Shown: piece after piece, positions 4,323-19,616 of the stretch | Layout: the number at the start of each line of letters is the position of its first letter | How positions within the stretch are numbered: the stretch's first letter is position 1 | NCBI GenBank assembly: GCA_016187025.1 | Contig: JACPKM010000004.1 | Coordinates: 35,212-99,211, forward strand | DNA: 64,000 bases | Direction of reading: 5' to 3' | Origin: Candidatus Daviesbacteria bacterium | GTDB lineage: Bacteria > Patescibacteriota > Microgenomatia > Daviesbacterales > UBA10151 | The notes under the pieces: generated by a model | What the model saw: only the letters and a program-made list of their open reading frames with translations | Database searches by the model: none | What the model was told of the DNA's origin: nothing | Program-made: the position numbers and the translations under genes

Positions 4323-4372
4323 TTTTTGCTTCGGTAGGATTTAGTTGGGCACCTACTGTCTTAAGCTAAAAT

Positions 4373-4401
4373 ATTCTACCTTACGTTTGTTTGCTTGTCA
4401 A
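4373..4401 (-). promoter_or_regulatory. sigma70-like promoter for rplJ-rplL
   Basis: On the minus strand TTGACA (4401-4396), a 17-nt spacer, then TAGAAT (4378-4373), about 50 nt upstream of the rplJ ATG. Confidence 0.45.
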
Positions 4402-4402
4402 T

Positions 4403-5302
4403 CTATTTTGGTACCCAGATCCAATAACCTGACTGGTTTGAAGGATGAATCGAAGGTGGGTTATTAGGGCCTCCAATGGCTTTAGTATCTGGTACCAAAT
4501 ATGCAGATGAGGATGATTCTTGTCTGGGGGTAGAGCTCCAGACTCCGGTTGCTCCAACTGCTCCTTGGTTTTTTAGGATGATTGAAAGATCCATGTTGTT
4601 TATCACGCCGTCCTTGTTTAAATCTATATTATCATTCCAACTGGTAGAGGAGGGTGTTGTTCCAAAAGCAGATTTCGCAATATCTGAATCTGCAGTATTT
4701 ATCATATTGTCTTCATTTAAATCTCCACTTAACAGATTCACAACATCTCCGTTATTTAGATTTGTTTTGGTAGGTGACATTAAGAAAGCTGATGCTGTAG
4801 CAATTTGAGCAGGCCCTTTAATAATTGCTGTATAGGTATTGTTTGGGGTAAGTCCAGCCAGGGAGATATTGTCAAATTCACCAGATGTCGGTAGGTCAAT
4901 GGTAAAGCTTAATAGATACTTAGGGCTGGTATTTACTGCGCCCTCTATTATTCCTACAAACATCTTTGCATTTTGCTTATCCCCTGGCCTTCCTTGTAAA
5001 CTCAATTTAATACTTAAAGTAGGTCCAAATGATACAGAAAGTGTAGGCGGGTCTGATGATTGGGGAGTGGGAGAAGCCTCAGTGGTATCCTGTTCTGAAA
5101 GAAGTTTTAGTTCATCAATTGGTGATAGCTTCTCCTCAGGTATGGCAGAAGGGGTACTGATGGTAAAAGTCTTTTTAACAGCTTGAGAGGCTGATGATTT
5201 AATTGTTTGGTTTTGTGAGGCAAGATATGCTCCCACAGGAATAGAAAGCACTAAAAAAATATACACTCCTAAAATAACCCTGATCTTAGTAGAGGAGAAC
5301 AT
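4403..5302 (-). CDS. secreted protein with a type-I dockerin-like double Ca-binding repeat
   Basis: N-terminal signal/TM (ILGVYIFLVLSIPVGAYLA). The paired segments DLNEDNMINTADSDIAKSAFG and DLNKDGVINNMDLSIILKNQG (approx. nt 4570-4735) match the dockerin D.N.DG.IN..D pattern. Confidence 0.6.
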   Translation of the reverse strand: MFSSTKIRVILGVYIFLVLSIPVGAYLASQNQTIKSSASQAVKKTFTISTPSAIPEEKLSPIDELKLLSEQDTTEASPTPQSSDPPTLSVSFGPTLSIKLSLQGRPGDKQNAKMFVGIIEGAVNTSPKYLLSFTIDLPTSGEFDNISLAGLTPNNTYTAIIKGPAQIATASAFLMSPTKTNLNNGDVVNLLSGDLNEDNMINTADSDIAKSAFGTTPSSTSWNDNIDLNKDGVINNMDLSIILKNQGAVGATGVWSSTPRQESSSSAYLVPDTKAIGGPNNPPSIHPSNQSGYWIWVPK

Positions 5303-5429
5303 ACCTTAATCATACAATTTACAATTCACAATTTTCAATTTACGTTTTTGTTTACAAAAAGGAAAGCTATGCTTACGTTTTAATCCGTTGATTAAAAGGA
5401 ATGCTTTGCATACAATCTAAATTAGATAA

Positions 5430-17112: not shown

Positions 17113-17978
17113 AGCTTGCAGATGAGTTATATGCTGCAAATGGAATGAGATTTTTGGCTCAAGCTTACGAGCAGATCTCAGTATTTAAAATGCAGAAAAT
17201 AAGAAGATCAGTTCTAAAAACCAGGGATTTTCTGGATAGATTATCAGATGTTTTTTTTGATGTTAAAGGCTCATATAAAGACAAAATTATTGCCCTAATT
17301 AAGAAAAAAAAGCATGTCCCAACTGTTAACTCGTTTTCAACACTACCCAAAAACGGTAAATCAGTAGCAGTTTTTTTGTCTGCTAACACCAGATTATATG
17401 GAGATATTATCAGCAAAGTTTTTCAATCCTTTAAAGAGTATGCCAATACACAATCAGAGGTAGAACTTGTGATAGTAGGAAAGCTTGGACGGGAAATTTA
17501 TGATAAAGAAAGCAGTAGTAAAAAAGCATATGAATACTTTGAAATACCAGACAATGATGTCTCCTTCGCCCAGCTTGAGCCTTTAATTGCCAAGATCCTA
17601 GATTATCAAAAGGTGACAGTATTTTATGGACAGTTTGTTAATGTTTTAAATCAGTCTGCCCAAGGCCAAGAAATTACTGGAGAGCAGCCGGTAGATGATA
17701 AGCAGGTTCAAAGGCAAGTGCACTTTTTGTTTGAGCCATCCTTAGAAAACATCTTAAACTTTTTCGAGACCCAGATTTTTACTTCAGCTTTCAAGCAAAC
17801 TGTTCATGAGGCCCAACTTGCTAGGTATGCTTCAAGGATCAATGCAATGGAGGAGGCTTTAGTCAATATAGACAAACGGATCAAGAATATTAAATACTTA
17901 AAGTTAAGGGCCCAAAAAGATATCCAAAATAAAAAGCTACAACAGACAATTGCCGGTATATCTTTGTGGGGAGGATAA
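17097..17978 (+). CDS. atpG: F-type ATPase gamma subunit
   Basis: Positioned between alpha and beta, overlapping both. N-terminus ([23 protein letters not shown]) and size are consistent with gamma. Confidence 0.65.
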
Positions 17979-19360
17979 GTTTCATGAAAAATATTGGAAA
18001 AATTACCAGTATCAAACAACATATTATTGAGGTTGAGTTTTTAGACCATAAACCCAAAATTCATAATCTATTAGTACTAAAAAATGACCGCAGTATCAAA
18101 ATGGAGGTATTTGCCTCATCCAAGGCAAATAAGTTTTATTGTCTGCTTTTGGCAAATACTCATCCTAGAATAGGTGATGTGGTGAAAGATACTGAAGAGC
18201 CAATTATTATTCCGGTAGGAGAGGAGCTTTTGGGAAGAGTTATAGATCTATTTGGCAAAGTCCAGGACGAAGGAAAACAGTTTCAAACAAAACACAAAAA
18301 GTCTGTTTTTAAACATGATTTAAGTTATGCCAAAATTAATACCCCAAAAACAGTACTTGAAACCGGCATCAAAGTAATTGATTTTTTTACCCCAATTTTA
18401 AAAGGGGGGAAAGTGGGGCTTTTCGGAGGAGCAGGAGTAGGAAAAACAGTTTTACTTTCTGAAATTATTCATAATATTGTCATTTTAGGAAAAGGTAAGG
18501 GTTTGTCTGTATTTACAGGAGTAGGAGAAAGGTCAAGGGAAGGCCAAGAGCTGTATGAAACAATGCAGGAAAACGGTGTTTTGAAAGATATTTGTTTGAT
18601 GTATGGGCAAATGGGAGAAAATCCGGCTGTTAGATTTAGAACTGCCACCAGTGGGGTAGCTGTGGCAGAGTTTTTCCGTGACTTTCTACAAAAAGACGTG
18701 CTGTTTTTTATTGATAATGTTTTCAGGTATGCTCAGGCCGGATATGAGTTATCAACTCTTATGAATACCATCCCTTCAGAAGGTGGGTATCAAGCCACTC
18801 TGTCATCAGAAATGGCCCTGCTTCATGAAAGACTTGCCTCAAATGAGAAAAACTTTATCACTTCTTTTGAGGCAATTTATGTCCCATCAGATGATTTAAC
18901 AGACCATGGTGTACAGTCGGTTTTTCCTTATCTTGACTCAAGTATTGTTTTATCCAGATCTGTTTATCAAAGCGGCTTGTTTCCGGCTGTAGATATACTT
19001 TCATCTGTGTCTTCAGCTTTGAATGAGGAAGTTGCCGGAAGCGTGCACTTTATAACCGTTTTGCAAGCCCTGGCAATCCTTAAAAAGGCAGTTACACTGG
19101 AAAGGATGGTATCGCTGATTGGTGAAGCAGAGCTGTCTGGGGATGACCAAATAGCTTTTAAAAGAGCCAGAATGATAAAAAATTACATGACTCAGAGCTT
19201 GTCGGTGGTTGAGGGTCAAACAGGCAAAAAGGGTAAATTTATTCCTTTGGAGCAAGTAGTCAGGGATGTAAAAGAAATCATTGAAGGTAAATTTGATTCT
19301 GTTGATCCAGGCAAGTTTTTGTACATTGGCAGCGCTGAGGAGGTAATGAATGCATCCTGA
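17966..19360 (+). CDS. atpD: F-type ATPase beta subunit
   Basis: [11 protein letters not shown] Walker [27 protein letters not shown] (DELSEED-like). Confidence 0.95.
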
Positions 19361-19613
19361 TGAAAAAAAGCTGCAGCTTACCATAATCAGCCCTGATTCA
19401 GAGGAAGTATTTACTGAAGAGGTGGATGTGGTTTCCTCAACTAATTTAGAAGGCCCATTTGATGTCTGGCCACTTCATACAAATTTTATCTCCATTATTA
19501 AAGAATTTTTAGTAATATATAAAAACAATCAAAAGATAAAAGAGCTAAAAATTGATACGGGTGTGTTAAGGGTAAACTCTAATAAAGTGGAAGTCTTTTT
19601 AGGAATAGCCTAA
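19350..19613 (+). CDS. atpC: F-type ATPase epsilon subunit (N-terminal beta-sandwich only, 87 aa)
   Basis: Position after beta plus the epsilon N-domain pattern. It lacks the C-terminal helical hairpin. Confidence 0.7.
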
Positions 19614-19616
19614 GCT

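Follow-up and report, generated by a model that had tools for sequence, protein, structure and literature searches.

We analyzed a 64-kb stretch of DNA (hereafter, the window) from contig JACPKM010000004.1 of a Candidatus Daviesbacteria bacterium, a member of the Microgenomates in the candidate phyla radiation (CPR), in which the ribosomal protein genes rplK-rplA and rplJ-rplL lie far apart. Judging from gene order in related genomes, this split between rplKA and rplJL is ancient and Daviesbacteria-wide. Overall, the arrangement is probably best explained by an old, lineage-wide split at an operon boundary, which contains a conserved core pair of genes and variable slots, with a module that combines a giant fibre gene and an ATPase operon present in the window as cargo. 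The split itself is of modest interest, and it is the cargo that merits follow-up. This cargo is a widespread, previously undescribed, putative fibre-linked F1 ATPase with a predicted c-like subunit devoid of the ion-binding carboxylate.

To describe gene order around rplA, we performed a scan with the RplA sequence, retaining one genome per species. A total of 40 loci was obtained, of which 30 came from metagenome-assembled genomes (MAGs) of Daviesbacteria or close Microgenomates, the best RplA relatives being Daviesbacteria MAGs; 26 of these loci were long enough to be judged. In none of the 26 informative loci was rplJ found beside rplA. The gap between the two genes contained a flippase-like gene on the strand opposite to rplA (about 25 loci out of the 26) and a dockerin-like gene co-directional with rplJ (24 out of the 26), the latter being 40-53% identical to that of the window. 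In the minimal form of the gap (L026, L037, L039, L022, and L023), rplA, the flippase-like gene, the dockerin-like gene, and rplJ were all found within 1.9-2.8 kb. Because this pair is shared by nearly all Daviesbacteria loci, the split can be considered ancient. The initial annotation of the window had described an unusual insertion into a universally linked cluster and had proposed a comparison with related genomes as a check; the former does not hold for this lineage, and the latter showed that relatives share the split, which points to an ancient rather than a recent rearrangement.

Two slots within the gap carried variable cargo, one between rplA and the flippase-like gene and the other between the dockerin-like gene and rplJ. 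Among the relatives, these slots contained HigA/Gp49 toxin-antitoxin pairs, 23S_rRNA_IVP, a sigma-70 factor, Fic, AIR carboxylase, IS200-like (Y1) transposases, or giant surface proteins. The distance between rplA and rplJ ranged from 1,856 to 9,105 nt in the other Daviesbacteria loci (17 loci) and was largest in the window, where it reached 15,295 nt; the number of genes in this gap was given as nine, based on open reading frames (ORFs), Pfam, and NCBIfam. Of about 27 loci, 4 had the giant gene and the ATPase block within the gap, where these occupied two different sub-positions. All the genes of the gap had initially been regarded as accessory. This view is appropriate for the giant gene and the ATPase block, whose presence is variable, but not for the flippase-like and dockerin-like genes, which belong to the core of the lineage. 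Outside the Daviesbacteria, 2-5 kb separated rplA from rplJ in other, more distant CPR loci, the two genes were contiguous in a Woykebacteria locus, and two of the four Firmicutes loci exhibited a 1.9-kb insertion at the rplA/rplJ boundary.

The initial annotation implicitly reads the gap as recent and specific to this genome, an island acquired horizontally having entered a contiguous rplKAJL cluster. This reading is difficult to reconcile with the presence of the flippase-like and dockerin-like genes in the gap of essentially every Daviesbacteria locus. It would fit the size of the gap in the window, the largest of all loci, as well as the absence of the giant gene and ATPase block from most Daviesbacteria gaps; moreover, a putative recombination scar in locus L020 and incongruent beta subunit identities, both described below, point to movement of the ATPase block between lineages. 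However, the convergent junction between the epsilon subunit gene and rplA is common to L010, L020, and the distant loci L052-L054. In addition, no integrase or recombinase (Pfam), no att-like flanking repeats, and no tRNA target were found in region 4323-19616; the nearest tRNA was located 13.7 kb from the gap, and the GC content of the gap matched that of its flanks, except in the repeat-rich giant gene. An integrative island or mobile element was also rejected as a class, as its machinery was not found and variable presence applied only to the giant gene and ATPase block. Overall, a recent island is unlikely, and the ancient split with variable slots is preferred.

The two ends of the gap were compared with independent assemblies. 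Nine Logan contigs from six runs of one project (SRR12113424, -384, -430, -422, -383, and -385), found by exact-protein look-up, matched the window with 100% identity in the stretches 3327-5368 and 14546-20554 and spanned both junctions, and the epsilon/rplA junction was identical in the independent contigs L003-L005. The flippase/giant gene junction (6431-6478) and the interior of the giant gene, which is rich in repeats, lie outside the stretches covered by the independent contigs. An artefact of assembly or binning, by which unrelated contigs would have been joined at 4300-4420 or 19600-19620, could be suspected because the source is a MAG and the giant gene is rich in repeats; in addition to the identity of both junctions in the nine contigs, the recurrence of the same junction types in MAGs of other species makes such an artefact extremely improbable. 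Mis-assembly at either junction, which the initial annotation had wished to see checked, is thus effectively excluded, or at least very unlikely. The coordinates of all features are collected in Table 1.

Table 1. Features of the window, with coordinates, strand, and the basis of their assignment.
Feature	Coordinates	Strand	Basis and remarks
Secreted Cys-rich protein, 644 aa, 44 Cys	1224-3158	+	Signal peptide; converges on rplL, where many bacteria have rpoB
rplL (L7/L12)	3227-3679	-	Pfam Ribosomal_L12 and L12_N
rplJ (L10)	3759-4322	-	Pfam Ribosomal_L10; contigs L001 and L002 identical across the region
Putative rplJ promoter and short L10-leader hairpin	4328-4401	-	-35 TTGACA 4401-4396; -10 TAGAAT 4378-4373; hairpin 4366-4328
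Dockerin-domain secreted protein	4403-5302	-	Pfam Dockerin_1, 29.2 bits versus cutoff 22.9
Flippase-like membrane protein, LPG_synthase_TM/TIGR00374	5430-6431	+	Pfam, E 9e-36; NCBIfam TIGR00374
Giant membrane-anchored fibre protein (putative), 2,746 aa	6478-14718	+	Pfam Intein_splicing, Peptidase_S74, Kelch; sequence reading
p267, 267 aa	14834-15637	+	Signal peptide, predicted extracellular beta domain (38-168), C-terminal c-like hairpin (194-266, nt 15413-15634)
F1 alpha, divergent	15640-17112	+	Pfam ATP-synt_ab; NCBIfam 395.7 bits versus cutoff 554
F1 gamma, very divergent	17097-17978	+	Pfam ATP-synt; NCBIfam 69 bits versus cutoff 194
F1 beta	17966-19360	+	Pfam; NCBIfam TIGR01039, 447 bits versus 463; alternative start 17984 in public gene calls
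F1 epsilon (atpC), 87 aa, N-terminal beta-sandwich only	19350-19613	+	Pfam ATP-synt_DE_N; 40 bits versus NCBIfam cutoff 67
rplA	19617-20501	-	Pfam; stop codon 19617-19619
rplK	20494-20922	-	Pfam
nusG	20933-21571	-	Pfam
secE	21573-21824	-	Pfam

Compared with the classical secE-nusG-rplKAJL-rpoBC cluster of E. coli, B. subtilis, and most bacteria, the window retained the order and strand of secE-nusG-rplK-rplA and rplJ-rplL, whereas the rplA-rplJ and rplL-rpoB adjacencies were lost, with 15.3 kb between rplA and rplJ versus 1.9-9.1 kb in the other Daviesbacteria loci. The genes secE, nusG, rplK, and rplA (21824-19617, minus strand) were separated by at most 10 nt or overlapped, secE and nusG adjoining rplK upstream (21824-20494) as in the classical cluster. 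Signature motifs of rpoB or rpoC were not detected anywhere in the window, and an ORF family of about 1,300 aa following rplL, taken as rpoB, was observed in the Firmicutes loci only and in none of the sampled CPR loci. The description of the region given in the initial annotation was largely borne out: the cluster is interrupted between rplK-rplA and rplJ-rplL, the dockerin, flippase-like, giant surface protein, and reduced ATPase genes have the identities and coordinates assigned to them, rpoB is not downstream of rplL, and a secreted Cys-rich protein converges on rplL. The junction with rplA is also as tight as described, since atpC (stop codon TAA, 19611-19613) and rplA converge, their stop codons being 3 nt apart, and a terminator-like site was not found at this place. 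It is not a peculiarity of this genome: the convergent epsilon/rplA junction also occurs in the two closest relatives, L010 and L020, and in the distant CPR lineage represented by L052-L054, and is therefore old and portable.

A sigma70-like promoter specific to rplJ had been proposed at the end of the dockerin gene. We did find a promoter-like sequence (TTGACA-17-TAGAAT, 4401-4373) with 11 of 12 matches, which began 1 nt past the dockerin stop codon, in the 80-nt intergenic region, and not in the gene itself. A TTGACA-17-TAnAAT sequence followed by the hairpin GCUUAAGAcAGUGAG-loop-CUCACCGAGGC was present upstream of rplJ in most of 18 Daviesbacteria sequences, whatever the preceding gene, and most of the 18 also exhibited a GC-rich hairpin with a U-run, resembling an attenuator, immediately before the rplJ ATG. 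The L10-leader hairpin comprised nine pairs, none of which was broken in ten sequences and two of which showed compensatory changes. In L030, the rplJ leader scored 45.7 bits with the Rfam L10_leader model (RF00557; gathering score, 44). The regulatory function of the leader in the window would thus be the one inferred from its relatives. Near rplK or secE, no candidate for an L1 leader was detected, and a scan of the window at Rfam gathering thresholds returned only three tRNAs. In the rplJ leaders of other Daviesbacteria, for example those of L013, L015, and L027 (100-150 nt upstream of rplJ), the two hairpins, L10-binding and attenuator, were separated by a spacer that varied greatly in length and held species-specific short tandem motifs such as CAGTCATCAGCTATCAGC and ACAGGGG/TACCCTGT.

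In the classical system, a leader that binds L10(L12)4 regulates rplJ-rplL separately from the L1-regulated rplKA unit (PMC3616713). The window likewise appears to possess an rplJ-rplL promoter of its own and an L10(L12)4-type leader, although this leader is shortened to the binding hairpin and no L1 leader was detected. The split would therefore lie at the boundary between two units, secE-nusG-rplK-rplA and rplJ-rplL, that are autonomous in transcription and regulation. As neither half would depend on the other, DNA could accumulate between them, and this autonomy may be the reason why the split is tolerated.

The two halves are also apart in other lineages. In Mycoplasma genitalium, rplKA and rplJL are separated (MG081/082 versus MG361/362), and in this species the halves can evidently function apart. 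The same is indicated by Methanococcus vannielii, in which rplK is located apart from rplA-rplJ-rplL (PMC3616713). By contrast with these lineages, the halves in the window are not dispersed but collinear and on the same strand, and the gap forms a cargo slot with a gene pair that is conserved throughout the lineage.

In the window, the slot on the rplA side is occupied by a six-gene module made up of the giant fibre gene, the gene of a 267-aa protein (p267), and the genes of the alpha, gamma, beta, and epsilon subunits of an F1 ATPase. This fibre-ATPase module is widespread in CPR bacteria and travels as a unit. Compared with the window, L052-L054, which share its epsilon/rplA junction, were about 36% identical in p267 and 36% identical in RplA. 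In L038, a Daviesbacterium, a seven-gene version was found in the other slot, beside rplJ. The beta subunit of L038 was only 45% identical to that of the window, whereas identities of 51-60% were obtained with loci from outside the Daviesbacteria, including 60% with L055. These values are at odds with the relationships between the species, which indicates that the module has not been inherited strictly vertically.

In L020 (13943-14540), we observed a 132-codon fragment of the 3' end of rplA fused to a truncated flippase gene and abutting atpC. This fragment was 80% (amino acids) and 81% (nucleotides) identical to the rplA of L010, compared with 73% to the intact rplA of L020 located 3 kb away. 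The junction resembles a scar left by recombination, or perhaps a scaffold that is chimeric. The import by recombination of a segment consisting of the rplA 3' end and the module would fit such a fragment, and the module may move by homologous or homology-facilitated recombination anchored in the flanking rplA and flippase genes.

Several observations weigh against the reading proposed here of an ancient split between self-regulated units that houses a mobile cargo. Promoter-like sites in the region were not more frequent than expected by chance (12 found versus 10.0 expected), so that the putative rplJ promoter is supported only by the conservation of this particular site. The L10_leader match in the window reached 23.2 bits versus a gathering score of 44 (E = 0.52) and ran into the coding sequence, and the attenuator hairpin was not present in the leader of the window, nor in that of L023. 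The evidence from L020 comes from one scaffold. Moreover, the species tree was a crude neighbour-joining tree of 394 columns with no support values, which cannot choose between an ancestral module followed by losses and repeated transfer, and synteny was read from 20-kb excerpts of MAG contigs, which are not complete genomes and can be chimeric.

We then considered the cargo itself. The p267 protein, catalogued at NCBI as hypothetical protein HYW42_03400, occupies the position in the operon that usually belongs to subunits a and c. The NCBIfam model of subunit c matched it with an E-value of 1.4e-3, and in a PDB profile search the top six matches were all F-type c subunits (E-values of 0.018-0.16). 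According to the family alignment, p267 has a signal peptide followed by a conserved domain of roughly 130 aa, and its C-terminal helical hairpin has an invariant GRNP loop. Its predicted topology, with the N-terminus outside and the loop inside, fits that of a c subunit. The AlphaFold model had a predicted local distance difference test (pLDDT) score of 87.9; using Foldseek, the modelled hairpin could be superimposed on c subunits with template modelling (TM) scores of 0.74-0.87 and root-mean-square deviations of 1.3-1.9 Å, the best match being that of Chloroflexus, which has the same GRNP loop. The modelled N-terminal domain resembled phage capsid decoration proteins and the autochaperone of phi29 gp12.

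In the column that corresponds to the ion-binding carboxylate, p267 has Thr250. This position was occupied by T, S, A, or V in 219 out of the 219 family members compared, and by Asp or Glu in none; a conserved Asn was located one turn away. The p267 family contained 795 representatives of 50%-identity clusters at E ≤ 1e-30. We found no description of a p267-type ATPase in CPR bacteria or Microgenomates in our literature searches.

The four F1 subunits encoded downstream of p267 all had Pfam matches, yet all fell below the NCBIfam equivalog cutoffs. The alpha and beta subunits kept their catalytic motifs; in beta, we recognized the Walker A motif GGAGVGKT, the GER catalytic motif, and a DELSEED-like segment. 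The alpha gene starts 2 nt past the stop codon of p267, which leaves no b or delta gene between them. In most relatives, the operon has seven genes, in the order p267, b-like, delta/OSCP, alpha, gamma, beta, and epsilon, the b-like gene encoding a transmembrane helix and a coiled coil; for example, the delta subunit of L055 matched Pfam OSCP with 30.6 bits versus 22.3. A tblastn search of the window with the b- and delta-like sequences of relatives gave nothing better than an E-value of 0.2. An intact five-gene form without b and delta was found in the window, in L010 and L020, and in three unrelated metagenome loci (L073, L075, and L077).

The a subunit was searched for as the signature R-[LIVMF]-x-[GAS]-N within a polytopic ORF. 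This heuristic scan, which combined a regular expression with topology, detected none in 1.23 Mb covering the window and the related loci around about 40 operons, with flanks of up to 10 kb. Four matches to the expression and topology were rejected, as all were inside repeat proteins. Thus, the window shares with a canonical F1Fo the catalytic alpha3beta3 with Walker motifs, gamma, and epsilon, whereas the Asp/Glu of c subunits, the a subunit, and the b and delta subunits were not found in the operon or the window (for the a subunit, by the heuristic scan of flanks).

The giant gene upstream of p267 encodes a predicted protein with a 27-aa cytoplasmic stub, one transmembrane helix, and then a conserved juxtamembrane domain (residues ~60-226, nt 6655-7155). 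The protein also carries GNxGIG and Kelch-like repeats, as well as a domain assigned to Peptidase_S74 (residues 2422-2471, nt 13741-13890), a type of intramolecular chaperone known from phage tail fibres. In most contexts examined, the p267 operons were flanked by giant ORFs, whose lengths were 20,465 aa (L055), 10,499 aa (L056), more than 2,339 aa (L057), and 2,374-2,477 aa (L052-L054). The juxtamembrane domain was common to the giant ORFs of L055, L056, and L058 (38% identity, E-values of ~1e-21 to 1e-23). In a reciprocal scan of metagenome contigs, for which the juxtamembrane alignment alone was used, 37 loci were recovered and p267 and/or F1 genes were present in the flank of 30; the seven loci without an ATPase were mostly on short contigs. 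The adjacency of fibre and ATPase was kept in three arrangements, with the fibre gene downstream, divergent, or, as in the window, upstream. This argues for a linkage that is under selection rather than an inherited gene order.

Other features were observed in the giant proteins or near their genes. In the window, an apparently genuine intein was located at residues 506-826 (nt 7993-8955; Pfam Intein_splicing, E = 2e-13); it begins with Cys506 and ends with His-Asn826, after which comes Thr (...HVVGQ/CVARGTRI... and ...DIVAHN/TYISGNLGIG, where the slash marks the junction). The intein sits within a GNxGIG repeat of the surface fibre protein, which is, to our knowledge, an unusual host for an intein. 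In L055 (17709-20798), L056 (17428-20792), and L058 (17940-19910, more than 657 aa), the giant proteins exhibited a cytoplasmic MerR/HTH_17-like DNA-binding domain before the transmembrane helix, which suggests a membrane-tethered regulator fused to a fibre; this domain was not present in the giant protein of the window. In L083 (8384-10204), a contig from Hainich groundwater, the juxtamembrane domain was encoded directly downstream of rplJ-rplL, a further case in which the fibre gene is associated with this part of the ribosomal cluster. Finally, domains resembling the N-terminal domain of p267 (27-34% identity), without a c-like hairpin, were found in or just after the giant ORFs of L016 (16774-17115), L078, L085, L089, and L090. 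Parts of the fibres may thus be homologous to the p267 extracellular domain; with the giant protein of the window itself, the N-terminal domain had no significant similarity (best E-value, 0.28).

The lack of a membrane-embedded Asp or Glu in the p267 hairpin (0 of 219) bears directly on whether the operon encodes an ordinary chemiosmotic F1Fo, with genes elsewhere in the genome for the a, b, and delta subunits as well as for a normal c subunit, and with a linkage to the giant gene of no functional meaning. Such an enzyme would be in keeping with the retention of all catalytic motifs in alpha and beta, with a beta score near the atpD cutoff (447 versus 463 bits), and with the presence of b and delta in the operon of most relatives; split atp operons occur in other bacteria, and one JGI pipeline labels a member of the p267 family 'subunit c'. 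For the Roizmanbacteria, moreover, a canonical eight-subunit F1Fo was reported in one genome at least (PMC10656485, Supplementary Data 4). The a-subunit signature was nevertheless missing from the 1.23 Mb around about 40 operons, gamma and epsilon were far under their family cutoffs, and b and delta were missing from six independent lineages in which the remaining ORFs are intact. An ordinary enzyme would also leave unexplained the adjacency of the fibre gene through three arrangements and the ATPase found at 30 of the 37 loci with the fibre domain. We therefore regard an ordinary F1Fo as doubtful.

Alternatively, the five-gene operon could be what remains of the seven-gene form after decay and be in the course of being lost. 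Many CPR bacteria are without an ATP synthase or have only 'minimal complexes' (PMC10656485; PMC7143001), and decay would fit the absence of b and delta. It would not be expected to leave five unbroken, closely coupled ORFs, as observed at 50-79% identity in the window, L010, and L020, nor to produce the same five-gene layout in the unrelated loci L073, L075, and L077 while conserving the catalytic motifs. This possibility appears distinctly improbable. Taken together, the features of the p267 operon and its link to the fibre gene suggest a non-chemiosmotic F1 machine coupled to a surface fibre, and the ATPase seems unable to pump ions.

Among known systems, the ATPase of the window would work most like the F1-like X0 ATPases of mycoplasmas. 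The Type 2 and Type 3 enzymes consist of F1 homologues with non-Fo membrane partners, evolve fast, are horizontally exchanged, and have been implicated in surface roles (Beven et al. 2012, PMC3369863); in the gliding motor of M. mobile, an F1-like ATPase powers giant surface 'leg' proteins (PMC11864180, PMC8406192). As in the window, homologues of alpha, beta, gamma, and epsilon are found in a host-dependent bacterium with a reduced genome. In the window, however, the membrane partner is a recognizable derivative of the c subunit and not an unrelated protein, most relatives of p267 keep b and delta, and the giant fibre gene is directly adjacent. Membership of the mycoplasma Types 2 and 3 was rejected, as scores with the MSC_0618 beta, MSC_0619 alpha, MMOB1660, and MMOB1670 models were below cutoff (395/570, 252/520, 358/600, and 372/850 bits), and the canonical F1 models of NCBIfam outscored the mycoplasma-specific models on the alpha and beta subunits of the window. 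An N-ATPase (alternate F1Fo) was also rejected, as scores with the alt_F1F0 models were below cutoff (TIGR03324, 318/750 bits; TIGR03305, 396/752 bits; TIGR03323, 16/282 bits), the operon containing no extra small membrane genes.

In CPR bacteria, ATP synthase subunit genes and a tail-fibre-like gene were recently reported to co-localize with the pam pilus operon, and this association was interpreted as a means of coupling the assembly of pili to the production of ATP (Troman et al. 2026, bioRxiv 10.64898/2026.03.03.709456). That study describes neither the p267 fusion nor the lack of the carboxylate and of the a subunit. Minimal or incomplete rotary ATPases of CPR and DPANN organisms, such as that of Nanoarchaeum equitans, have been described as losses (Mahendrarajah et al. 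2023, PMC10656485). These enzymes resemble the one studied here in having reduced subunit sets in ultra-small symbionts. They differ from it in that the membrane subunit of the window appears to have been remodelled, with an extracellular domain gained and the carboxylate lost, in a form conserved over at least 795 sequence clusters.

We tentatively propose that the giant fibre, p267, and F1 may constitute a CPR-specific surface machine, ATP-driven and non-chemiosmotic. In such a machine, F1 would hydrolyse ATP and turn, or otherwise drive, a ring of carboxylate-free c-like hairpins. Each hairpin would bear an extracellular domain resembling phage decoration proteins, and these domains would together form a crown. 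The crown would act on, anchor, or assemble the membrane-tethered, giant tail-fibre-like protein for contact with the host.

Other features were noted in and around the ribosomal cluster. The RplA protein (19617-20501) carries a Lys/Glu-rich N-terminal extension of about 85 aa (residues 1-85), which exists in variable form in many Daviesbacteria RplA. Between the ASCH gene and secE, region 21811-23667 contains a PIN toxin gene (21811-22185) that overlaps the TTG start of secE by 14 nt, an antitoxin-like gene (22166-22426), and an ORF of 371 aa (22552-23667). In nearly all other Daviesbacteria loci, secE has the ASCH gene as its neighbour; this region is a second window-specific insertion beside the ribosomal cluster. 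Genes for tRNA-Trp (33314), tRNA-Thr-GGT (34971), and tRNA-Thr-TGT (36086) were found upstream of secE on the same strand, spanning 33314-36157, and a tRNA...secE order occurs in many bacteria. About 11.5 kb between tRNA-Trp and secE contained PBP1A, GH1, and GH5-like genes as well as ORFs with no assigned function; PBP1A and the ASCH gene were also located upstream of secE in most related loci. The Cys-rich protein that converges on rplL had no Pfam or NCBIfam match, and no homologue was found at the position adjacent to rplL in any of the related loci compared.

With regard to the ribosomal cluster, the window provides a natural example of a permissive rplKA/rplJL boundary, each half being apparently self-sufficient in transcription and autoregulation. 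The order rplA, flippase-like gene, dockerin-like gene, rplJ can be regarded as a stable, lineage-defining synteny marker for Daviesbacteria. Moreover, conserved ribosomal genes may serve as recombination anchors for cargo exchange in genomes that have no obvious mobile-element machinery.

With regard to the ATPase, CPR bacteria are usually scored as having a full or partial ATP synthase according to matches to alpha and beta. The p267 family adds at least 795 clusters of a putative membrane subunit that is devoid of the residue needed by all known rotary ATPases for ion translocation. If the surface machine proposed here exists, F1 would have been recruited for surface mechanics a second time, independently of the mycoplasma F1-like ATPases, and the machine would be the first rotary ATPase to expose its rotor ring externally as a structure. 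Metabolic reconstructions for the Microgenomates would have to be revised if these enzymes have no bioenergetic role, and episymbiotic bacteria would then possess a new ATP-driven surface apparatus that can be tested with defined components.

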